Part shown: positions 1 through 48,250 of the stretch, piece after piece
Layout: each line of letters starts with the position of its first letter
Numbering within the stretch: position 1 is the stretch's first letter
Source: Patescibacteria group bacterium
GTDB lineage: Bacteria; Patescibacteriota; Minisyncoccia; Phycocordibacterales; JBBTRF01
Direction: 5' to 3'
Length of the DNA: 64,000 bases
Assembly: GCA_038065315.1 (NCBI GenBank)
Contig: JBBTRF010000001.1
Span: forward strand, 230,413 to 294,412
Made by a program: the position numbers and the translations under genes
The notes under the pieces: model-generated
Database searches by the model: none
The model's input: only the letters and a program-made list of their open reading frames with translations
What the model was told of the DNA's origin: nothing

Positions 1-943
1 TCTCCTCTTTCTTTCCGCCCTTCAAATATTTCCACTGCTTCAAATCAGAATCCTTGATATAGAACTCAGCCGGAATCTTAGCCTCATCGTGCTCAACAAC
101 ATCTTTTAATAAAATCCTCTTACCTTTGTAATCCGGTGCCGTCTTTACCGTATAAACCTCTCGATCAATCATTACGCCAGAATTTTCAAACGGGCTTGCT
201 GATGGTTTTTCGGCAGAAAAATTCTCTGAGACCTTCTTCAGGTCGCCCTCAATAGAAAATTGCTCAAGCTCAGAAACGGTCTTTTCCGTAATCGGAAAAG
301 CTCTAGCAATAGTTCCACTCTTTAGAATCCAGTTCTTGATGGACTTTTCCTTCTTTATCGCTGAGTAAGGCACGGTTCCCTTCTTATATCCCAAGATAAA
401 CACTCTTCTTCTCCTCTGAGGCATGCCGTAGTCAGCAGCATTGACGACTCTCCATTCGACGATGTATCCAAGGTCAGCAAGCGAAGCAAGCATGACAGCA
501 AAATCTCGACCTCGTTGAGAAGCTGGTGACTTCAGGAGTCGGTCCACATTTTCGAGCATCAAAAAGTTCGGGGCCTTCTTTCCCTTGTTCTTCAAGATGT
601 TAAAGATGGACCACCATAGGACACCCTTCTTTCCATACAGACCTTTCGACTGTTGCAACGTGGTAGCAACGGAATAATCCTGGCAAGGAAAACCACCAAC
701 AAGTAGGTCGTGGTCAGGAATCTGCTTGAAGTCGTTCGCAATGACTTGTTGTATATCTTCACAAGAGTGGCCCTCCTTGCCGAACTTATGGATGTAGATA
801 TCCGAGGCGTGCTGCGTGCTCGCTCCAGGCTCCCATTGGCTACTCCAGACCATTCCGTAGGCATTGCCACCCTTTACGGCTTCCAAGCCAAGCCGGAATC
901 CACCCACACCCGCAAACAGCTCGACGACCTTTAGTTTTTTCAT
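1..943 (-). CDS. DNA (cytosine-5)-methyltransferase, partial: start codon at 943, C-terminus cut by window start
   Basis: Manual minus-strand translation from ATG at 943 gives MKKLKVVELFAGVGGFR (motif I FxGxGG), then GGFPCQ (motif IV), ENV (motif VI), QRRRRVF (motif VIII). The track ORF 592..870 is in a different frame and is spurious. AT-rich relative to core. Confidence 0.8.
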   Translation of the reverse strand, partial: MKKLKVVELFAGVGGFRLGLEAVKGGNAYGMVWSSQWEPGASTQHASDIYIHKFGKEGHSCEDIQQVIANDFKQIPDHDLLVGGFPCQDYSVATTLQQSKGLYGKKGVLWWSIFNILKNKGKKAPNFLMLENVDRLLKSPASQRGRDFAVMLASLADLGYIVEWRVVNAADYGMPQRRRRVFILGYKKGTVPYSAIKKEKSIKNWILKSGTIARAFPITEKTVSELEQFSIEGDLKKVSENFSAEKPSASPFENSGVMIDREVYTVKTAPDYKGKRILLKDVVEHDEAKIPAEFYIKDSDLKQWKYLKGGKKEE

Positions 944-992
944 TCCGTGATTATAGCAAGAGCCAGTAAATCGATCAAGTCGTTTTTGTTTC

Positions 993-2396
993 CTAATTTT
1001 CTATCGCTTTTTCGATGTATTTTGCGTTGAGCCAGAAACATTTCTTCATCTCCTTGGTTCCCTGAGGAGTTTCGACAGTATCGGAAGAATCCTTGCCGTG
1101 CGGGCGGACGTGAACAATGGAGCTATCCTTCATTTTTGGCAGGTCCTCGTATCGCCCCTCATTTATTGCATCAATAGTCTTCTGCCACACCCTCTCTGCC
1201 TCTGACAAGTCTTTCATCGGGAAGTTCCAGAACATAGTCTTTCGCAAAATGATATCGTCAGAGTCTTTCACCTTCTGAAATACAACGAAGAGAAACTTTT
1301 GCGTTTCTAGAAGAGCGTGCAGGTCAGCCATCTCCTCTGTGTCATCATCCTGCCAAACCTGAGTGACCAGGTCCTTATAGTCGAATGCGGGGAATGAAAT
1401 AGACTCACGGAGAGTTCCTGTATGTTCAAGCGTTAGCACCTTGAGAGTCACGTTCGCCTTTTCGAGTTCCTCGATTTTATTTGACTCAACACCAAAAATC
1501 CGGTTCACCAAGATTCGCTTGTAATTCTTTGATTCGCCAACAGACTTCCAACCTAATACTGCTGCTATTTCTTTATCGGTCTTACCGATAAAGGGTGCGA
1601 ATTCCTCATGAACCACAGCTTCGATTGTCTTCGCTTTAACTTTTTTTGCTCGTGCCTTCTCCAACAGTGAGTCCGCCTCCGTTTTGTTCCCCAGGAGATC
1701 TCGTTGAATTAGGTAATTTAGATATTGTTGCTTGAAAGAAAAAGCTCTTGGCTTCGCTGGAATACGTGAAGTCGGCTGATCTCGAAGGATACGGCTATTC
1801 TGTGCCTTAGTACAAGCCCCGAGATAGTACGTATCCCCCTCTGAAAGTAAGTGGGCTTCACCGGCTTTTATCTTTGCGACAATGAACTCCCAATCCCTCT
1901 GGATTTGCAAGATATCGTCAGCGGAAATATCGTTCACATTCAACAAGTCGAGTTGTTTAATGAACTTGAACTCGTGATCAACGATACTCTGTCCTTGCAT
2001 ATGAAGATAGAACATCAGGAGTAAGAACTTGTTTTTCTCTAGAAAAGAACTGCTCCGCCAGACCTCTTTTATCACCTCGTCATAATCAATCATTGAAAAA
2101 ACGAGTCTCTCCTTCGAAGTGTATTTTCTGGTTGGGTGTTTCTTAAGAGGATTGGTCTTTAGCTCGACGCCGGCAAGGTAAAAATCAGCCTCGTTCTTAT
2201 TGTCCGGCTCTTTACCAAAGACATAACGTTGAATGTAAATACCGAGCAACCCCTTCATCTTTGAACCATACCTACTCACTTCCGCCTCGACAGAACCTAT
2301 CTCATTCTTAGGAATAATGGAACGTAGATTCTTCTTGAGTATCTTCTGTGCGGCCGCAAACACCTCTTCCTTGGTCTTGAATTCTGTATTATTCAT
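993..2396 (-). CDS. Type II restriction endonuclease, Sau3AI/MutH family (likely GATC-specific)
   Basis: N-terminal region ...ADFYLAGVELKTNPLKKHPTRKYTSKERLVFSMIDYDEV...SSSFLEKNKF resembles the MutH/Sau3AI catalytic core (D..ExK, GVELKT). It lies 50 nt upstream of the C5-MTase on the same strand, and its 467 aa is close to Sau3AI size. Confidence 0.7.
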   Translation of the reverse strand: MNNTEFKTKEEVFAAAQKILKKNLRSIIPKNEIGSVEAEVSRYGSKMKGLLGIYIQRYVFGKEPDNKNEADFYLAGVELKTNPLKKHPTRKYTSKERLVFSMIDYDEVIKEVWRSSSFLEKNKFLLLMFYLHMQGQSIVDHEFKFIKQLDLLNVNDISADDILQIQRDWEFIVAKIKAGEAHLLSEGDTYYLGACTKAQNSRILRDQPTSRIPAKPRAFSFKQQYLNYLIQRDLLGNKTEADSLLEKARAKKVKAKTIEAVVHEEFAPFIGKTDKEIAAVLGWKSVGESKNYKRILVNRIFGVESNKIEELEKANVTLKVLTLEHTGTLRESISFPAFDYKDLVTQVWQDDDTEEMADLHALLETQKFLFVVFQKVKDSDDIILRKTMFWNFPMKDLSEAERVWQKTIDAINEGRYEDLPKMKDSSIVHVRPHGKDSSDTVETPQGTKEMKKCFWLNAKYIEKAIEN

Positions 2397-3054
2397 CTTG
2401 GTTTATATGATACTTTATTATGCTCAAATATGCATTTTTGGTCACAATAACATGATCAGTGAGATGAATATCAAGTATTTTGCCAGCATGAACAAGCTTC
2501 TTGGTCATTTCAATGTCTTCTCCGGAAGGCTGCGTGACTCCGGAGGGATGGTTGTGAGCCACGATAACACTCGCGGCACGTAAAGTGATGGCTGGTTCAA
2601 ATAATTCACGGGGGTGAGCAAGGCTTGCGTTGAGCGTACCAATCGAGATGACCTGTCTCTCTATTAGACAGTCCTGTGTGTCGAGATAGAAAGCGACGAA
2701 ATGTTCCTTTTTCGAATCTTTTATGTCCGAACAGAGTTTCCAGACATCAGTAGGAGATAGTACTTCCGTTTTCTGAACGGTAAAACGGTCCGTTAGTTCA
2801 AGGATGGATAAAACCTGAGCCGCCTTCGCCTTACCCAATCCCCTAATCGATAAAAGATGCTCGAGGCCAATCTTTTGCTTACCGATCTCGGAGATAAGCT
2901 CCAGTATCTTTTTTGAAAGCTGCAAGACATTCGAACCTTGGATACCGGAACCGAGAACTACAGCAAGAAGCTCTTGATCGGTGAGTCTTTTGACGCCATA
3001 CTTCTGCAATTTCTCACGAGGAAGGTCGACCTTTGGTAGTGACATCATTTTCAT
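2389..3054 (-). CDS. radC: RadC-like JAB/MPN domain protein (UPF0758)
   Basis: N-terminal HhH region (LTDQELLAVVLGSG), JAMM motif HNHPSG and downstream D. The gene overlaps the REase start by 8 nt. Confidence 0.8.
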   Translation of the reverse strand: MKMMSLPKVDLPREKLQKYGVKRLTDQELLAVVLGSGIQGSNVLQLSKKILELISEIGKQKIGLEHLLSIRGLGKAKAAQVLSILELTDRFTVQKTEVLSPTDVWKLCSDIKDSKKEHFVAFYLDTQDCLIERQVISIGTLNASLAHPRELFEPAITLRAASVIVAHNHPSGVTQPSGEDIEMTKKLVHAGKILDIHLTDHVIVTKNAYLSIIKYHINQDE

Positions 3055-3359
3055 ACGTTCAGAAAGTATGTCACTTCCGATACGAAAAAAGAAGCGAAAT
3101 CTTTATTAAGATTTTATCGATTTTTAAACAAGCCTTATTTTCTCTAGCTTTCCCGACAATCTTTTACTCGAAAAATAGCACTCCCGCATTGCGAAAACCC
3201 TCCACCCGAGTCGTCTCAGTGCCTGGATATTTCGTTTATCTCTCTTTATGTTCCTCTCGAACTTTTTCCTCCAAAATGCTTGGTTATGTTTAGGCAGCGG
3301 TAATTTAAACCTCGAACACGCATACCAGAAACAGCCATGGACGAAGACGACAATAACAG

Positions 3360-3587
3360 CTAACCATTCTCTAATTCGAATAGCTGGTCATCACTTAAAT
3401 CAAGTACCCCTCGACAATCCAAAAGTTGCATACGTAGCTCTTCTCGTTTAAGCAATTCTTCCGGGTCAATATGCTGAGGGGTCATCTTTTTCCCAGACAC
3501 ATAATTCCCAACTATAATTCTGGTTTTCTGGTCAAGTTCCAGGTACTCTTTATACAATTCCTCACAACGTGTTTTTTTGTCAGACAT
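3360..3587 (-). CDS. small hypothetical protein (75 aa), co-transcribed with the upstream HEPN-like gene
   Basis: ORF sits 4 nt downstream of the 3592..4254 gene on the same strand in an AT-rich island; no recognisable motif. Confidence 0.3.
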   Translation of the reverse strand: MSDKKTRCEELYKEYLELDQKTRIIVGNYVSGKKMTPQHIDPEELLKREELRMQLLDCRGVLDLSDDQLFELENG

Positions 3588-3591
3588 GTTT

Positions 3592-4254
3592 TTATATTTT
3601 CTCGGAAATATGTTCTATGGCATAGACGACAGCTCTGAACGTTTCAAGATTATCTCGCACTTCCTTTCTTGTTATTGGTCTAACCTTGCCGTGATGCTTA
3701 TTGCCATAGTATACATCATTTCTGTGAACAATTGAGTCTCGGCGTTCTGCCATAGTGGCAACTATCCCTCTAACATCCGCCCTTCTACCCTTCTTTTTCC
3801 TACCCGGCTTTATTGAAAGAAACTTATTAACCTGTTTCCAACCATCATTAATTTCCATCATTGAAAAGGCCATTTGAATTGACTCAGGTTTTTGAAAGGT
3901 AACAGAACCAAGAGACTCTTCTAAAAAATTTATCAATCTTTTGGTCGGATCTTTCTGAATAATCAGATTGGTCAATTCCTTGTAACCATCCTTATCTTTA
4001 AATTTACCCCTTATTCTTTCCACGCACCTTTCCGGAACTCGTTTTTTATGATGAATTATCTTGGTAATAATCTCGATGGTACGTTTATGGATATACGCAT
4101 CCAAAGCGGCGACGGTAAAAACAATTACGGCTCGAAGCAAATCAGCAGTCACCCCCTTGGAGGCAGGTCTTCCAATTGGAAACTTTTCCTCATGAAGCTT
4201 TAGCAGCTCTTCGGAACGCTGTATATTGAGAATGAAAAATTCAATAGCTCTCAT
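3592..4254 (-). CDS. HEPN-like domain protein (Abi/defence-associated), hypothetical
   Basis: Contains an Rx4H-type motif (ERRDSIVHRN) in a predicted helical region; basic 220-aa protein in the AT-rich island next to the R-M genes. Confidence 0.4.
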   Translation of the reverse strand: MRAIEFFILNIQRSEELLKLHEEKFPIGRPASKGVTADLLRAVIVFTVAALDAYIHKRTIEIITKIIHHKKRVPERCVERIRGKFKDKDGYKELTNLIIQKDPTKRLINFLEESLGSVTFQKPESIQMAFSMMEINDGWKQVNKFLSIKPGRKKKGRRADVRGIVATMAERRDSIVHRNDVYYGNKHHGKVRPITRKEVRDNLETFRAVVYAIEHISEKI

Positions 4255-4258
4255 AGTT

Positions 4259-6514
4259 TTAAGCCCTCTTCTTCCTCCTCACCTCCGTCACCCGTTTCGC
4301 TGCGGCGGCGCGCTCCTTTCGGTCGCCCTTCACCACAGCCCCAATCCGCTCCTCCAGTGCCTTCACTTCGTCGCGCAAAATAGCGGCCGTTTCGAAATCC
4401 AACACCTTCACGGACTCCTCCATTTCGGCTTCTTTGCGCTTGATCACCTTGCGAATCAGCTTTTCGGCCTCCGCAGCATCGGTCACACCAGCAAACTCCG
4501 CCTCGTCCACCGCGAGCAAGCCCTTCACCGCCTTGGCATGGTCGGTCTGGATCTGGTCGGTGATGTCTTTGATCGCCTTGATAATCGTCTGCGGCGTGAT
4601 GCCGTGCCTGGTGTTGTATTCTATCTGCAGGGCACGACGACGCGCCGTCTCCTTCATCGCCCGCTCCATCGAACCGGTGACCTCGTCGGCATACAAAATC
4701 ACGCGGCCAGCCGTATTTCGCGCCGCACGACCAATCGTCTGAATGAGCGCCATCTCCGAGCGCAGGAAGCCCTCCTTGTCTGCATCGAGAATACCAATGA
4801 ACGTCACCTCCGGCAGGTCGAGGCCTTCGCGCAAGAGGTTCACGCCCACGAGACAGTCGAATTTGCCGCGACGAAACTCTGTGAGAATCTGAATACGATC
4901 GATGGTCTTGATTTCGCTATGCAAATATTCGGCCTTGATCCCCTTCTCCTTCAAATATTCCGACAGGTCCTCCGCCATTTTCTTGGTGAGGGTCGTCGCG
5001 ATAACTCGCCCACCCTTTTTCACTTCTTTTTGGGTTTCGGCAATGAAGTCGAAAACTTGACTGGAATAAGAACCCTTTTTCTCAATGATTGGGCGAATCT
5101 CCACTTCTGGATCAAGGAGGCCAGTCGGTCGAATCACCTGCTCCGCGATCTGCCCATCGCCATCAGGACCGCCCTTAACGCTACGCTCGAGCTCATACTT
5201 GCCCGGCGTGGCGGTAGTGTAGATGCGCTGGCCGAGGCGTTCTTCGATCTCGTCGAATTTGAGCGGCCGATTGTCGCGTGCGCTTGGTAATCGGAAACCA
5301 TACTCCACGAGCGACTGCTTACGTGATGCATCGCCAGCAAACATACCGCCCAACTGCGGAATCGTCACGTGTGACTCGTCGATGATGGTGAGGAAATCCG
5401 GCTCGCCGAGATTGCCAACCGCGCTTGGAGCACCCTTCTTCACCGCCTTATGCGGAAAATACGAAATGAGCGTATCCGGCGGTGCGCCCGCAGGCATCCC
5501 GCTGAAGTGGCGCGAGTAGTTCTCGATGCCGTTGCAGTAGCCGACTTCGCGGATCAGTGCCAAATCATAGTTGGTGCGGCGTTTCAAACGCTCCGCCTCG
5601 AGATTCTTTCCCGCCGCTGCGAGCTCTTTGAGCCGCACATCCAGCTCGGCCTTAATCGTCTGCAAAGCCCGCTTCTGCCCTTCGTCCGTCGTAATGAAAT
5701 GTTTAGCCGGGAACAAAAAGAACGCGTCAACGTCGCCGATGATGCGGCGAGTGGTCGCGTCGATCTTCATGATTTCGCCGACCACTTCCACCGGCACTTC
5801 GGCGCCTTTGCCCGCTTTTTCCATTTTCGTCTCGAACCCAATCCGAAACAGCGCGCGCTCGTTCACCGGCATGATCTCGATCGAGTTGCCCAGCGCGCGG
5901 AAGGTACCTGGCGTCAAATCAGCGTTGGTGCGCTCATAGTGTATGTCGATGAAACGGCGCATCATGTCGGCACGATTGCCCTTCATGCCGCGCGCGATCT
6001 TCATGTTGACCTTCTCGTATTCAACAGGCGAACCCAGACCATAGATACAAGAGACGGTAGCGACGATGATGACATCCTTGCGCGTGAGCAGGGCCTGGGT
6101 CGACGCGTGGCGCAAGCGTTCGATCTCTTCGTTGATCATCGCCTCTTTTTCGATATAGGTGTCGGTGACGGGCATGTACGCCTCGGGCTGGTAGTAGTCG
6201 TAGTAGGAGACGAAATAATGCACCGCGTTGTCCGGGAAAAACTCTCGATATTCCTGCGCGAGCTGCGCCGCGAGCGTTTTGTTGTGAGCAATGACGAGCG
6301 TCGGCTTGCCAATCTGTTCGATGACATTGGCCGCGGTGAATGTCTTGCCCGAACCGGTCACACCAAGCAGGGTCTGATGTTTCATCCCCTTGCGCACGCC
6401 CTCGACGAGCATCTTGATCGCCTTCGGCTGATCGCCCGCCGGCGTGTGGCCACCGGTTTTGAGTTTGAAGGGTGAATTTGCGGCCGAATTTTCGTTTTTT
6501 GACGCGGCTTTCAT
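4259..6514 (-). CDS. uvrB: Excinuclease ABC subunit B (UvrB)
   Basis: Walker A GVTGSGKT, the beta-hairpin region, helicase motifs and the C-terminal UvrB/UvrC interaction domain are present. Start refined to the internal Met (MKAASK..., ATG at 6514), because the upstream extension in the track ORF runs through a repeat element. Confidence 0.95.
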   Translation of the reverse strand: MKAASKNENSAANSPFKLKTGGHTPAGDQPKAIKMLVEGVRKGMKHQTLLGVTGSGKTFTAANVIEQIGKPTLVIAHNKTLAAQLAQEYREFFPDNAVHYFVSYYDYYQPEAYMPVTDTYIEKEAMINEEIERLRHASTQALLTRKDVIIVATVSCIYGLGSPVEYEKVNMKIARGMKGNRADMMRRFIDIHYERTNADLTPGTFRALGNSIEIMPVNERALFRIGFETKMEKAGKGAEVPVEVVGEIMKIDATTRRIIGDVDAFFLFPAKHFITTDEGQKRALQTIKAELDVRLKELAAAGKNLEAERLKRRTNYDLALIREVGYCNGIENYSRHFSGMPAGAPPDTLISYFPHKAVKKGAPSAVGNLGEPDFLTIIDESHVTIPQLGGMFAGDASRKQSLVEYGFRLPSARDNRPLKFDEIEERLGQRIYTTATPGKYELERSVKGGPDGDGQIAEQVIRPTGLLDPEVEIRPIIEKKGSYSSQVFDFIAETQKEVKKGGRVIATTLTKKMAEDLSEYLKEKGIKAEYLHSEIKTIDRIQILTEFRRGKFDCLVGVNLLREGLDLPEVTFIGILDADKEGFLRSEMALIQTIGRAARNTAGRVILYADEVTGSMERAMKETARRRALQIEYNTRHGITPQTIIKAIKDITDQIQTDHAKAVKGLLAVDEAEFAGVTDAAEAEKLIRKVIKRKEAEMEESVKVLDFETAAILRDEVKALEERIGAVVKGDRKERAAAAKRVTEVRRKKRA

Positions 6515-6592
6515 TGAAAATGGATTATAACGTATTTTTCGAGGTTCGTAAATAAACCTGGCGCGATCGGCTGAGGTGCCGCGATATTTTTG

Positions 6593-6683
6593 AGTACCTA
6601 CGGATTTTTCATACTTTTTCATACAAAATATGAGAAAGTATGAAAAATCCGCACCTACTATTTTTCGCTGCGCCACCCCACCC
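6593..6683. repeat. Palindromic intergenic repeat element, copy A (~22-bp inverted arms AGTAGGTGCGGATTTTTCATAC / GTATGAAAAATCCGCACCTACT plus flanking box TTTTYCGCYGCRCCACCCC)
   Basis: Near-identical copies at 16564-16650, 40761-40838 and 48161-48250 (the last inverted). Copy A lies between the end of the 6790..7227 gene and the uvrB start. Confidence 0.75.
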
Positions 6684-6789
6684 AGACGAGCACCTCTCTC
6701 CGCGACAAGAAAAAACCGCCTCGCCAACCCTCCACACGGGAGAATCGACAAGGCAGTGAGTAGCGGCCGCGCAATAGCGGCGACAGAGG

Positions 6790-7227
6790 TCACATCATCG
6801 GGACCAAATCATGGTGCCCAAGCGCGAGGTCCGTCATCGTCCTCCGGTAAATCGCCCGACCTTCGCCGAGCAACACCATGAACTGTTCGTAGCGGCTTTT
6901 CAGCGCCTGCTTCACCGCAACGAACCATTTCATCTTGAGTCCGCGACGGATGGGCCGACGTTTCTCCAGGATCTTCGCAGCCTCGTCGAGCGCAACCACG
7001 GCACGCTTCAAGAGGGTGCGAGTAAGATGGCCGTCGTAAACATTGACGATGAAGTCAAGGACGTCGCTCACCGCCCGGCTGGCACGATTGAGGCGCTCGA
7101 TCTTTGGCCGGATAGGGTGCCGACAATAGTAGTTGCGGGCATTTTTCAGGTTGATGATGGCCTGCCTTAGGGCAGTCAGGCAGGGATGCGGAGGCTGCGG
7201 CTTGGGATGCTGTTTGAGGAGCTTCAT
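6790..7227 (-). CDS. hypothetical protein
   Basis: 145-aa ORF with GC-rich codon usage consistent with the core; no motif recognised. Confidence 0.4.
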   Translation of the reverse strand: MKLLKQHPKPQPPHPCLTALRQAIINLKNARNYYCRHPIRPKIERLNRASRAVSDVLDFIVNVYDGHLTRTLLKRAVVALDEAAKILEKRRPIRRGLKMKWFVAVKQALKSRYEQFMVLLGEGRAIYRRTMTDLALGHHDLVPMM

Positions 7228-16422: not shown

Positions 16423-16563
16423 AAGTAACTCCAGGGATGTGATGTCGGTGTTCCGACTGGTTTTCAAACAACGCGAATGGAATAATTAAACCGCGACACG
16501 GTCACTTTGTCAAGAAAATATCCGGACGATGTGAACAAGTGGGTGGGTCCGCCGACTTTTTTG

Positions 16564-16650
16564 AGTAGGTGCGGATTTTTCATACAAATTCATACAAAGT
16601 ATGAAGAAGTATGAAAAATCCGCACCTACTGTTTTCCGCCGCACCACCCC
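16564..16650. repeat. Palindromic intergenic repeat element, copy B
   Basis: AGTAGGTGCGGATTTTTCATAC...GTATGAAAAATCCGCACCTACT plus the GTTTTCCGCCGCACCACCCC box; begins 13 nt after the stop of the 16664..17518 gene. Confidence 0.75.
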
Positions 16651-16663
16651 TGCTCCACCTGCT

Positions 16664-17518
16664 CTAGACGAGAAAAAGGTCCTGATTGTATTCCCCAACA
16701 CCGAGATATCTCGCTTCGCCACGCAAGATAGCTTCGTATGGCGCGCAGGCGAAGCATGGGGAGCCGCCCGCGATCACCCGTGGACATGCAAATTCACCTT
16801 TCTCGCGGGCGGCCTTCACTGCCCGAGCCACGGCGAGCACTTTTTCTCGCGCGACGTCCAACGAGGGCAGTTCCACCGACTTCGGCTCATCCTCCCGATC
16901 GAGATACCAATAGCTCGCACCCGACACTTTTCGCTTCTGCAATTCATTCAACAGCAGCAAATAAATCGGGAGCTGCAGCGACTCGCCATCCTCATCCCGC
17001 TTCCCCGTCTTGAAATCCAACACTCGCACGCTGTCGTCTGTCGGTACAAATTCGAGCCAATCAATCTTTCCGCACAAAATAATATTTTCCTCCTCAGACA
17101 AAAAGAAATTCGGCAACATGTCATCCTTCCCACCTTTCAGCTTCAACGCCTTCTTCACCAATGGCCCCGGATGCGCGATCACCCGCTCAATCATCACCTT
17201 GCCCCGCGCCTTCCATTCGGCTTCCTCATCGGCACTTTTGAAACCGCCTTTCTCGCCCGACACCTTCGCCCACTGCTTTTCGTATTCCGCCAATAAATCG
17301 CGTCCAGAAAATCGCTCTTCGGCCTTGAAATCCGCCAACCCCTCCACCACACCGTGCACCGCAGTTCCGAGAGACAAAGCCGGCCCAACGACACTCATCT
17401 TGCGGCGGGTCTTCGGATCCTTGTACATATTGTGCAGATAGTACGCGCGCGGACATTTCAAAAAATCCCCCATCGAGGAATGCGACACCCAAACTGCGCT
17501 GTATTTGTCTTTCGCCAT
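16664..17518 (-). CDS. Cas4-like / RecB-family PD-(D/E)xK nuclease with a C-terminal Cys cluster
   Basis: N-terminal Cys (FLKCPRAYYL), VLDFKTGK (D..K of the nuclease motif) and C-terminal CPRVIAGGSPCFACAPY (three Cys, Fe-S-like). Confidence 0.6.
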   Translation of the reverse strand: MAKDKYSAVWVSHSSMGDFLKCPRAYYLHNMYKDPKTRRKMSVVGPALSLGTAVHGVVEGLADFKAEERFSGRDLLAEYEKQWAKVSGEKGGFKSADEEAEWKARGKVMIERVIAHPGPLVKKALKLKGGKDDMLPNFFLSEEENIILCGKIDWLEFVPTDDSVRVLDFKTGKRDEDGESLQLPIYLLLLNELQKRKVSGASYWYLDREDEPKSVELPSLDVAREKVLAVARAVKAAREKGEFACPRVIAGGSPCFACAPYEAILRGEARYLGVGEYNQDLFLV

Positions 17519-40760: not shown

Positions 40761-40838
40761 GGTGGTGCGGATTTTTCATACAAAAGTATGAGAAAAGTAT
40801 GACGAATCCGCACCTACTCTTTTTCTCGTCGCCACCCC
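40761..40838. repeat. Palindromic intergenic repeat element, copy C
   Basis: GGTGGTGCGGATTTTTCATAC...GTATGACGAATCCGCACCTACT plus CTTTTTCTCGTCGCCACCCC. It starts at the nucleotide after the dus stop and is followed (minus strand) by a separate GC hairpin with a T-tract at 40700-40745. Confidence 0.75.
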
Positions 40839-47167: not shown

Positions 47168-48133
47168 ATGGAACACAAAAATCCGGAAAAATACCCGATT
47201 CGCCAACTTTCAGTCGACCAACTGCCCCGCCAGCTCGCAGAGATTACCGGCCGACCAAAGCGACTCTATAGTAGAGGGGACGAGAGCCTACTGCATAGGT
47301 ACGTCGAAGGCGCCGCGAACACCGCGGGAGGAAATCGGGGTCGCGGCCACAAGCTACTCTGCGTCATTGGCTCCCGGCAATACACGCCATACGGCCGCGA
47401 AGCCTGCGAAGCGATCATCGCAGGACTTCGCGACTACCCCATCACTATAGTATCCGGCCTGGCGCTCGGTATCGACGGCATCGCTCACGAAGCCGCCCTC
47501 AGAGCTGGATTAAAAACCGTCGCAGTGCTTGGTTCAGGACTGGACGACAACTCCATCTATCCCCCTTCCAACCAGCACATCGCCCGCCGTATTCTGGCCG
47601 AAGGCGGCTGTCTCGTCTCGGAAAATCCGCCCGGTACTCGCCCAGCACCGTATCACTTCCCGGCTCGCAACCGCATCATGTCTGGCCTGTCGCACGCGAC
47701 ACTGGTGATTGAAGCAAGGCGCCCCAGCGGCACCCTCATCACCAGCCAGCTTGCCACCGACCAAAACCGCGACATCCTCGCCGTCCCAGGCTCGATTTTT
47801 TCCGAGCACGCGGCCGGCCCGCACTATCTCATTGGCAAGGGCGCCACACCAGTGACCTGTGCACACGATGTGCTGGTGGCGCTGGGGTTTGCGGTCGAGA
47901 AGATACGCGGCAGAGGCAAAGCGAATGGCACAAAAAATCATACTCTCACAGCAAAACTCGCTGACCTCACCATCGCGGAAAAAATGTTGCTCGGAATCCT
48001 CGACCGACCAAGGACACGCGACGAGATCATTCGCGAGCTTGGCTGGAGCGCTTCGGAGACCAACGTCACGCTGTCGCTGCTCGAAATAAAGGAACTGATC
48101 GTCGCCGGTTTCAACGAAATTCGCAAAAAATGA
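47168..48133 (+). CDS. dprA: DNA processing protein DprA (Smf)
   Basis: Rossmann-like DprA core IGSRQYTPYGREA...IVSGLALGIDGIAHEAAL; C-terminal winged-helix-like region. Confidence 0.85.
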   Translation: MEHKNPEKYPIRQLSVDQLPRQLAEITGRPKRLYSRGDESLLHRYVEGAANTAGGNRGRGHKLLCVIGSRQYTPYGREACEAIIAGLRDYPITIVSGLALGIDGIAHEAALRAGLKTVAVLGSGLDDNSIYPPSNQHIARRILAEGGCLVSENPPGTRPAPYHFPARNRIMSGLSHATLVIEARRPSGTLITSQLATDQNRDILAVPGSIFSEHAAGPHYLIGKGATPVTCAHDVLVALGFAVEKIRGRGKANGTKNHTLTAKLADLTIAEKMLLGILDRPRTRDEIIRELGWSASETNVTLSLLEIKELIVAGFNEIRKK

Positions 48134-48160
48134 TCGGCAATGCTCAAAAAGTTTCAATGG

Positions 48161-48250
48161 GGGGCGGTGGCGGAGCAAAAAAGTGCCTACGGATTTGTCA
48201 TACGAAAGTATGAGGAAAGTATGAAAAATCCGAGGGTACTCGAAAACGCT
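48161..48250. repeat. Palindromic intergenic repeat element, copy D (inverted orientation)
   Basis: GGGGCGGTGGCGG box then AGTGCCTACGGATTTGTCATAC...GTATGAAAAATCCGAGGGTACT; starts 28 nt after the dprA stop. The box orientation matches the other copies relative to the upstream gene. Confidence 0.7.

Follow-up and report, generated by a model that had tools for sequence, protein, structure and literature searches.

A mosaic defence island beside uvrB in a Patescibacteria genome, with RadC as a probable member of a Sau3AI-like restriction operon

The locus described here raises the question of what an AT-rich run of genes immediately behind uvrB represents, and in particular whether the radC gene among them is a part of the adjoining restriction–modification (R-M) system or only its neighbour. 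Within the 64-kb stretch of DNA that was analysed (the window), we consider it highly probable that positions 1–4258 are the uvrB-proximal part of an acquired mosaic defence island made of two independent modules, the second being a type II R-M system in which RadC forms part of the restriction operon. Module 1 would be a HEPN(RiboL-PSP)/p75 gene pair (3360–4254), while module 2 would run from base 1 to about 3267 and on beyond the window, comprising a vsr remnant, radC, a sau3AI-like R gene, a C5 M gene and a gene for a 247-aa protein, the last of which sits outside the window.

All genes of 1–4254 lie on the minus strand, as read from the open reading frames, and are called as in the preliminary description. 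Its estimate of about 40 % GC against about 58 % was also close: the computed values are 0.38–0.48 over 1–4250 and 0.55–0.59 in uvrB and further on, and GC3 agrees (0.37–0.55 in island genes, 0.62–0.74 in host genes). The GC step is located at 4200–4400 and the island/host junction at 4255–4261 (minus strand), where a 4-nt spacer separates the uvrB stop codon (4259–4261) from the HEPN start. The placing of the island directly 3′ of uvrB is correct at this junction, but the window start is no boundary, as the island extends 3.5–6 kb further past base 1. The uvrB–uvrA gap, which the horizontally acquired island would occupy, measures 10.2 kb here versus 45 bp to 5.6 kb in relatives; the order LOG-Rlu-TGT-uvrB-uvrA is kept in about 60 relatives, and no homologues of island genes were found within their uvrB–uvrA gaps. 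Homologous islands at other uvrB 3′ ends, which were to be looked for, occur in two further loci. L173 carries a vsr remnant–RadC–REase–MTase–h247 block at 83.8 % DNA identity to that of the window, with an unrelated gene where the window has HEPN/p75, and in L092 uvrB is followed by HEPN and p75 and then by GmrSD. The uvrB 3′ end is common to L001, L092 and L173, and the sequences part directly after its TAA. The window sequence is matched in a 256-kb contig of the Patescibacteria MAG GCA_964355935.1 and in Hainich groundwater assemblies; the host is an ultra-small groundwater bacterium with a Paceibacteria-like Patescibacteria genome.

The R-M and HEPN parts of the island are ordinary. The C5 cytosine DNA methyltransferase (M subunit; 1–943, minus strand) has its 3′ end beyond the window start, the window covering the first 314 of 423 aa (full gene, 11454–12725 of L001). 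It matches Pfam DNA_methylase (1.8e-51), TIGR00675 dcm (186.7 bits) and PADLOC MTase_II (7e-119), and in full-length comparison shares 46–49 % identity with the dcm proteins that accompany Sau3AI-family endonucleases on Firmicute plasmids. Motifs I (FAGVGGF), IV (GFPCQDYS), VI (ENV) and VIII (QRRRR), read earlier from the letters, were confirmed, and motifs IX (RLMPVELERLNMFPD) and X (MGNALV) can be added. The 467-aa restriction endonuclease (993–2396, minus strand), in which a MutH-like catalytic domain at the N-terminus is followed by a C-terminal effector domain, scores 413.7 bits against the NCBIfam equivalog NF040973 restrict_Sau3AI (cutoff 300) and 1.6e-23 against Pfam MutH. Residues 51–423 align with Sau3AI (PDB 4pxg, E=8e-52), and the C-domain matches structures 2reu and 7xm0 (E~1e-13). 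D71, E78 and K80 are invariant across 31 homologues, and GVELK lines up with the site of the E64A substitution in crystallised Sau3AI. Considering the curated HMM and the alignment to a solved structure, the endonuclease is of the Sau3AI/MutH family, and the methyltransferase is a C5 enzyme and not one of another class, as had been proposed. The Sau3AI system (Staphylococcus aureus; GATC, 5-methylcytosine) and its Firmicute plasmid relatives share with the window the full-length equivalog match, the two-domain MutH-like enzyme with its D...ExK site and the adjacent same-strand C5 methyltransferase. Unlike those systems, the window cassette has an endonuclease about 30–39 % identical to the Firmicute enzymes, a leading coupled RadC (absent from Firmicute loci), a decayed vsr, a conserved trailing 247-aa gene and a Patescibacteria MAG as host. 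A site resembling a promoter (TG-extended TTGATC-17-TATAAT; 950–978, minus strand), found by a consensus scan inside the 50-nt endonuclease–methyltransferase spacer, could be a separate promoter for the methyltransferase, but is only a lead, the number of such sites in the region being not above chance.

We infer a GATC/5mC specificity for the pair. The methyltransferase would mark the host's own GATC sites, and the two-domain Sau3AI-like enzyme would cut incoming GATC DNA without methylation. Among the 16 palindromic tetramers, GATC shows the strongest depletion across 82 cassettes (431 observed, 889 expected; O/E 0.48); it is again the lowest tetramer in their flanks (O/E 0.72), and the window's own cassette has nine sites versus 20 expected. 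Avoidance by the host, for which a count had been suggested, was not found in the 64-kb window (O/E 0.99), which fits recent acquisition but lends the R-M reading no positive support.

The interval 3055–3359 is no empty spacer. It contains, unnoticed in the preliminary description, a 5′-truncated remnant of vsr (very short patch repair endonuclease; 3124–3354, minus strand; roughly the last 75–83 codons), detected by tblastn with 14 full-length Vsr proteins flanking homologous cassettes (E=1e-12 to 1e-22); one full-length Vsr of the homologous cassettes matches Pfam Vsr at 1.5e-22. Since its 5′ half is lost, and with it the region to which the Pfam Vsr model applies, the window's vsr is a pseudogene; the L173 remnant has the last ~42 codons only. 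The arrangement recalls the Dcm–Vsr pairing, in that full-length Vsr accompanies a C5 methyltransferase in the 14 homologous cassettes and the window retains a fragment, but here the truncated gene stands upstream of RadC. Vsr would once have repaired the T:G mismatches produced by 5mC deamination, and its truncation would date from insertion of the HEPN module.

The first gene of the cassette encodes a full-length RadC (UPF0758 HhH-type N-domain plus JAB; 219–221 aa; 2389–3054, minus strand), the stop of which lies within an 8-nt overlap with the start of the endonuclease gene (ATGAATAA), in keeping with the overlap first noted. The protein matches Pfam RadC (2.9e-39), UPF0758_N (1.3e-18) and the equivalog NF000642 (210.8 bits, cutoff 180), and the residues of its intact JAB metal site (E115, H165-N-H167-P-S169, S175, D178) are invariant across 33 homologues. 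In its two-domain architecture, JAB site and score above the NCBIfam equivalog cutoff it resembles housekeeping RadC/YicR (UPF0758), from which it differs in lying in a low-GC mobile cassette, overlapping the endonuclease gene, and in that its sampled close relatives all head R-M operons. RadC/YicR is reportedly competence- or SOS-associated and of unclear function, and we know of no linkage between radC and R-M genes in model bacteria. The suggestion that RadC rides with R-M genes is borne out far more strongly than it was put. Of 59 informative homologous endonuclease loci, 32 have RadC on the same strand with no more than 150 bp between it and the downstream endonuclease, and in seven more it is found within 4.4 kb; co-divergence is marked (Mantel r of 0.83 for RadC–endonuclease, 0.70 for endonuclease–methyltransferase). 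Conversely, all seven sampled relatives of RadC, at least 62 % identical to the window's and chosen on contig size only, precede same-strand R-M genes at distances of −1 to 82 nt (one Sau3AI-like, two HpaII-like and four type I systems), and background loci of the same bacterial group, 1.08 Mb in all, gave no match to R-M genes. As about a third of related endonuclease loci are without RadC, the R-M pair does not depend on it.

It is possible, if rather unlikely, that this gene is the host's housekeeping radC, whose 3′ flank is a hotspot for restriction and other defence cassettes, RadC and the endonuclease then being functionally unrelated. The ordinary full-length architecture and the NF000642 match agree with such a gene, and a second radC copy was not seen within the 64-kb window. 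Different R-M types stand behind closely related RadCs, which interleave in the RadC tree, and AIPR, NOV_C, an OLD-family nuclease, SF1/SNF2 helicases and Phd/ParE are at times intercalated right after RadC, ahead of the R-M genes; tree and intercalated genes are equally compatible with RadC as the conserved border of a variable locus and with RadC as an accessory factor. Composition argues for the cassette, however, as the GC content of RadC goes with that of the R-M genes (r=0.90) rather than with that of the upstream flank (r=0.44), eight of the nine loci with a GC contrast place RadC with the R-M genes, and its GC3 in the window is 0.46 versus 0.62–0.74 for host genes. Further, almost all outer flanks of the cassettes, including those upstream of RadC, are unrelated from locus to locus, whereas uvrB at similar divergence keeps its neighbours, and the window's RadC lies inside a uvrB–uvrA insertion that relatives are without. 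The attachment to the endonuclease survives inversion of the methyltransferase (L102, L103, L156), and overlaps of 1–8 nt imply translational coupling. We therefore favour RadC as a member of the restriction operon, where it would move together with the R-M genes, be transcribed first and be translationally coupled to the endonuclease.

Module 1 has the HEPN-like Rx4H protein and 75-aa partner of the preliminary description. The HEPN protein (RiboL-PSP family; 220 aa, basic, pI 10.0; 3592–4254, minus strand; HMM 41 bits versus 28.4) carries R172-x4-H177, the Rx4H being invariant, and belongs to a very small family of 10 clusters. Its partner p75 (75 aa, acidic, pI 4.8; 3360–3587, minus strand), for which no family match was obtained, is modelled as three helices (pLDDT 76.6) and has only ~13 small homologues among 1.84 billion representatives; homologues of 74–78 aa (87, 51 and 43 % identity) lie directly downstream of HEPN homologues in three unrelated contexts. 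The pair is probably a separate, rare, mobile two-gene module of the toxin–antitoxin or abortive-infection kind, HEPN presumably being the RNase toxin or abortive-infection effector and p75 the antitoxin, such that the basic RNase would be restrained by its small acidic partner. HEPN-MNT, HEPN toxin–antitoxin and Abi systems (SO_3166/SO_3165, AbiD/AbiF, LsoA-type) likewise show the HEPN fold, an invariant Rx4H and a small, tightly coupled pair of basic HEPN and acidic partner in a defence island; here the partner is a helical orphan and no MNT nucleotidyltransferase, and HEPN comes first. We find it doubtful that the pair is an accessory of the adjoining R-M or GmrSD system (for example, an RNA-targeting second line on restriction failure) and no self-contained toxin–antitoxin. 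Homologous pairs do adjoin GmrSD (L092) or an EcoRI-type methylase with GmrSD_N/HNH (L086), and the RiboL-PSP family shares operons with ParB-like (DUF262) nucleases, being also distantly related to AbiD/AbiF (PMC3710099), but the partner systems vary by locus, the L088 pair lies amid ribosomal and housekeeping genes, none of its neighbours being a defence gene, and L173 has the R-M cassette without HEPN/p75.

The anti-restriction role first proposed for RadC, as an establishment factor shielding the incoming cassette or a naive host, we regard as improbable: transcription ahead of the endonuclease would suit early protection, and RadC-type JAB domains are linked to restriction conflict in ArdC fusions, polyvalent proteins of conjugative elements and RadC/ArdB 'moron' modules (PMC3239186, PMC5512222, PMC12458937), but those are short or fused forms on plasmids, conjugative elements and (pro)phages, beside anti-restriction genes and serving the invader, whereas the window's RadC is full-length with its HhH N-domain and co-transcribed with its own endonuclease, ArdB/KlcA and ArdC were not found nearby, viral contigs scanned with RadC, endonuclease and HEPN profiles gave no relatives, Firmicute-plasmid Sau3AI-family pairs do without RadC, and an HTH controller-like gene already lies upstream of RadC in some cassettes (L097, L100, L101, L144).

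Finally, all that we say of RadC's role in the operon we infer, and our committed guess is a DNA-directed accessory (HhH plus JAB metallohydrolase) that would act on the nicks and ends left by restriction, processing or repairing them, and so would limit self-damage or channel fragments. A RadC-led restriction operon appears to be undescribed, and closely related RadCs lead operons of differing restriction types across this bacterial group.

In this bacterial group we find full-length RadC to be a member of restriction operons that moves along with them, and regard this as the new element; taken alone, the restriction–modification (R-M) pair of the island and its HEPN module are ordinary, being new members of known families only. 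Within positions 1–4254 of the window five genes run head to tail on the minus strand: a C5 DNA methyltransferase (MTase; starting at 943 and running off the window start, with 314 of its 423 aa inside), a Sau3AI-family endonuclease (REase) of 467 aa (993–2396), RadC of 221 aa (2389–3054), a 75-aa ORF, p75 (3360–3587), and a HEPN protein of 220 aa (3592–4254), the uvrB stop codon (4259–4261) lying 4 bases ahead of the HEPN start. GC is 0.38–0.48 in the island region versus 0.55–0.59 in uvrB and beyond, and GC3 is 0.37 in the HEPN gene, 0.38 in p75, 0.46 in radC, 0.51 in the REase and 0.55 in the MTase, with host genes at 0.62–0.74. The ORFs and the GC step confirm the preliminary description of an AT-rich island by uvrB that holds an R-M pair, RadC and a HEPN-like pair, and its main interpretation holds as well. 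A promoter and terminator scan of positions 1–4600 gave counts equal to chance expectation and no terminator between uvrB and the HEPN gene. The window sequence matches a 256-kb Patescibacteria MAG contig (GCA_964355935.1) and several Hainich groundwater assemblies; the closest species-level genomes are of the Paceibacteria/Parcubacteria type, with UvrB identity of at most 69 %.

The endonuclease, assigned to the Sau3AI/MutH family from the sequence alone, is indeed a member: it scores 413.7 bits (cutoff 300) against the NCBIfam Sau3AI equivalog NF040973 (residues 7–465 to model positions 2–474 of 475), matches Pfam MutH (1.6e-23) and aligns with the solved Sau3AI structure PDB 4pxg (E=8e-52). 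Its catalytic D71, E78 and K80 (EADFYLAGVELKT) are invariant across 31 homologues and fit a D-(X)n-E-X-K site, E78 (in GVELK) aligning with the Sau3AI catalytic E64, the position mutated in 4pxg. Residues 249–424 align with structures of the Sau3AI C-terminal domain (7xm0, 2e-13; 2reu, 1e-12) and form a predicted second, C-terminal MutH-like effector domain. More than 2,000 homologues of the REase were found, the named top matches all being Patescibacteria. The MTase had rightly been called a Dcm-type C5 enzyme: motifs I (FxGxG), IV (PCQ), VI (ENV), VIII (QRRR), IX and X (GN) are all present in the full-length protein, taken from the parent contig L001 (I–VIII only within the window itself), Pfam and TIGR00675 matches support the C5 type, and the protein is 46–49 % identical, variable region included, to the dcm partners of Sau3AI-family enzymes on Firmicute plasmids. 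From this identity and from the constant pairing with a Sau3AI-family REase we infer that the MTase targets the cytosine of GATC.

Restriction-site avoidance served as an independent, indirect check on specificity. In 82 homologous cassettes taken together, none of the 16 palindromic tetramers is as depleted as GATC (431 sites observed, 889 expected; O/E 0.48). GATC likewise has the lowest ratio in the flanks of these cassettes (O/E 0.72), and the present cassette has 9 sites against 20 expected. The avoidance that the preliminary description proposed to look for in the window is absent there (O/E 0.99 in the host window), which, with the GC contrast, fits a recent arrival of the cassette. Considering family membership and the avoidance signal, the pair would work as Sau3AI does, with the C5 MTase methylating host GATC and the endonuclease cleaving unmethylated GATC.

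RadC combines an HhH-type N-terminal with a C-terminal JAB domain (NCBIfam NF000642, 210.8 bits, cutoff 180; PF20582, 67.2 bits; PF04002, 134.2 bits), and its JAB metal site (E...HxH...S..D) is intact, E115, H165, H167, S175 and D178 being invariant in 33 homologues; PADLOC gave a weak JAB match only (E=0.038). Sampling from the endonuclease side yielded 80 metagenomic loci with REase relatives, 59 of them with enough upstream sequence. RadC lies no more than 150 bp upstream on the same strand in 32 of the 59 and within 4.4 kb in 7 more, and is absent in 20, mostly from loci of more distant enzymes; where genes separate it from the REase, they are other defence genes in tight overlap (AIPR, NOV_C, OLD-family nuclease, SF1/SNF2 helicases). 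The adjacency is kept where the MTase is inverted (L102, L103, L156), and in four loci a controller-like HTH gene stands upstream of RadC, which places RadC inside the operon. As a control, the same R-M queries were run against loci of this bacterial group centred on uvrB (1.08 Mb in all) and gave no match, while the positive control worked. Sau3AI-family pairs on Firmicute plasmids occur without RadC. A LexA/SOS-type or other common operator upstream of RadC (GAAC-N4-GTTC-like palindromes) was considered and rejected, none being shared by 41 non-redundant upstream regions. Phage carriage was also rejected: viral contigs scanned with the single RadC sequence and with RadC, REase and HEPN profiles contained no relatives.

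In the reverse sample, seven RadC relatives (62–85 % identity) chosen solely by how long their contigs were, R-M genes follow RadC on the same strand in all seven, with gaps of −1 to 82 nt; they form a Sau3AI-like cassette in one case, a C5 MTase with an HpaII-type REase in two and a type I system in four. In two of the seven (L176, L179) a Phd/ParE pair separates RadC from the R-M genes. Two loci (L174, L175) have SduA_C-domain (Shedu-type nuclease) genes embedded in the R-M operons behind RadC, and L178 has an AbiEii gene at its end. The RadC-headed loci look like small defence islands.

We favour, with moderate confidence, RadC being a functional accessory of restriction, and its most plausible role would be that of a DNA-directed hydrolase processing or repairing the nicks and ends that restriction makes. 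The main rival, which we consider rather unlikely, is that RadC is a conserved gene bordering a variable defence locus; this would agree with the way RadCs that precede different R-M types mix in the RadC tree and with the cargo intercalated behind RadC, but composition and flanks argue against it. Beyond the cassette, hardly any flanks are related between loci, and pairwise divergence is correlated between RadC and REase (Mantel r=0.83) as it is between REase and MTase (0.70). The GC of radC follows that of the R-M genes (r=0.90; the mean difference is 0.025) and not that of the upstream flank (r=0.44); of the 9 loci in which R-M genes and flank are more than 0.05 apart, 8 have radC on the side of the R-M genes. 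The anti-restriction role put forward in the preliminary description is improbable: the literature does link RadC to ArdC fusions, polyvalent proteins and RadC/ArdB modules, and in mobile-element modules of this type a plasmid or prophage carries a short RadC-like protein that neighbours ArdB/KlcA or is fused to ArdC, but the present protein is mismatched in architecture and context, since it keeps its HhH N-terminal domain, no Ard-type gene lies in the island and the viral contigs scanned gave no relatives. As to the accessory reading that we prefer, its extended form, in which the full-length RadC of Patescibacteria is a dedicated, mobile accessory subunit of several restriction types (Sau3AI-like, HpaII-like and type I) that acts on DNA at or after restriction, is put forward more tentatively. 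Neither RadC-led R-M operons nor RadC in Patescibacteria defence are described in the literature found, of which coverage is partial, and the RadC-led restriction operon is probably novel within that incomplete coverage.

The HEPN protein matches Pfam RiboL-PSP (PF18735; 41 bits, gathering score 28.4), has the HEPN helical-bundle fold and carries an Rx4-6H motif whose R172-x4-H177 is invariant in 10 of 10 family members. The RiboL-PSP HEPN family has been described as a distant relative of AbiD/AbiF that is found in operons with ParB-like nucleases (PMC3710099); this island contains neither an L-PSP domain nor a ParB/DUF262 gene, and two homologous HEPN/p75 pairs adjoin GmrSD (DUF262) genes. 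In three of four relatives the HEPN gene is directly followed by a p75 homologue, in surroundings that are unrelated (GmrSD; an EcoRI-type methylase with GmrSD_N/HNH; ribosomal genes), and the spacing is 4 nt here and −8 to +3 nt in L092, L086 and L088, again in contexts that all differ. Two small, adjacent, co-oriented genes thus stay together across unrelated contexts, as in type II toxin–antitoxin systems. The p75 protein, with three predicted helices, is acidic (pI 4.8) versus the HEPN protein (pI 10.0); only about 13 small homologues of it occur among 1.84 billion representative proteins. We read the pair as a mobile toxin–antitoxin or abortive-infection module with a presumed activity of the HEPN protein, which p75 may neutralise, as their charge complementarity suggests; neither protein has a PADLOC match. 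P0010, a 46 %-identical HEPN homologue (L090, L091), lies directly after a LexA-type repressor (LexA_DNA_bind + Peptidase_S24) and has a different downstream partner of 147–161 aa instead of p75.

The 305-bp 'spacer' between p75 and RadC contains a truncated vsr (very short patch repair endonuclease) remnant (3124–3354, minus strand) that corresponds to the C-terminal 75–83 residues of Vsr (tblastn E down to 1e-22 against full-length Vsr flanking 14 homologous cassettes). A complete vsr gene with the N-terminal catalytic half is absent here, and these last 75–83 codons have no Pfam Vsr match because the model covers the missing half. Two relatives that share the uvrB 3' end, L092 and L173, are short contigs from one other sample and reveal strain-level variation exactly at this site, L001, L092 and L173 parting company directly after the uvrB TAA. 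In L092 the uvrB end is followed by HEPN, p75 and GmrSD; in L173 it is followed by an unrelated 170-aa gene, an 83.8 %-identical block (vsr remnant, RadC, REase, MTase and a 247-aa gene) and a high-GC mscL. L173 keeps only the last ~42 vsr codons, and such remnants of unlike length indicate that two insertions, of HEPN/p75 and of the 170-aa gene, cut vsr at different points and consequently that the R-M cassette predates the arrival of the HEPN module.

The island is a mosaic that extends beyond the window start: on L001 the low-GC stretch runs past the MTase as far as a pair of DUF5678 and aspartyl protease genes. The 247-aa orphan gene (L001 12735–13478; GC 0.335), 10 nt after the MTase and retained alongside the cassette in L173, matches no Pfam family and gives PADLOC no more than a weak match to KwaB (E=0.033); its RGNIVFH stretch could be a HEPN-like Rx5H motif. 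Beyond it, at L001 13628–18222, lie a 123-aa orphan, an NYN nuclease and a pair of DUF5678 and retropepsin-like aspartyl protease genes (weak PADLOC PDC-M08B matches), then genes for a YgjP-like metallopeptidase, a double bPH_2 membrane protein and an MGMT-like DNA-binding protein, GC alternating between blocks in a manner that suggests several separate acquisitions; uvrA starts 10.2 kb after the uvrB stop. The order LOG-Rlu-TGT-uvrB-uvrA is kept in ~60 relatives, whose uvrB–uvrA spacers range from 45 bp to 5.6 kb and contain no homologues of the island genes. Since the larger spacers carry ordinary genes at host-like GC (histidine kinases, response regulators, FIST, DedA/VTT, MurB), the spacer is variable, yet we reject it as a general defence hotspot of the clade; defence cargo was seen in this gap only in the window lineage (L001, L173, L092).

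A dispersed hairpin repeat of ~65–110 nt is present at window positions 6573–6683, 16547–16650, 40766–40838 and 48160–48246 and at L001 18263–18373. Its core is GAGTAGGTGCGGATTTTTCATAC...GTATGAAAAATCCGCACCTACT (RNA fold −52 kcal/mol, z = −8.7), and copies occur immediately before the true uvrB start and before uvrA, ahead of a DNA-alkylation-repair operon, and 3' of Dus and DprA; it could be a repair-gene operator, a terminator or a REP/MITE-like element. With the copy at uvrA the variable region reaches its far border. The first ~103 codons of the uvrB ORF (6485–6793, minus strand; GTG start at 6793) are probably non-coding: they run through the hairpin repeat, the same 'MKKYEKS' peptide heads the uvrA ORF, and UvrB homology to relatives starts near residue 104.

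Finally, Patescibacteria have tiny genomes, are mostly not known to carry CRISPR and rely on DNA uptake, so that the organization and movement of their restriction systems matters for their ecology. The window also encodes DprA, a DNA-processing protein of natural transformation (47168–48133), and a PD-(D/E)XK/Cas4-like nuclease (16664–17518), which fit a DNA-uptake lifestyle and bear on models tying RadC and restriction to incoming DNA. Most bacterial lineages have a RadC, and we know of no agreed function for it since the original DNA-repair assignment was questioned. Its place as the consistently first, translationally coupled gene of restriction operons offers a direct experimental handle on the protein, and, if RadC is an accessory subunit, this operon context would provide the first concrete, testable function for the long-enigmatic RadC family.
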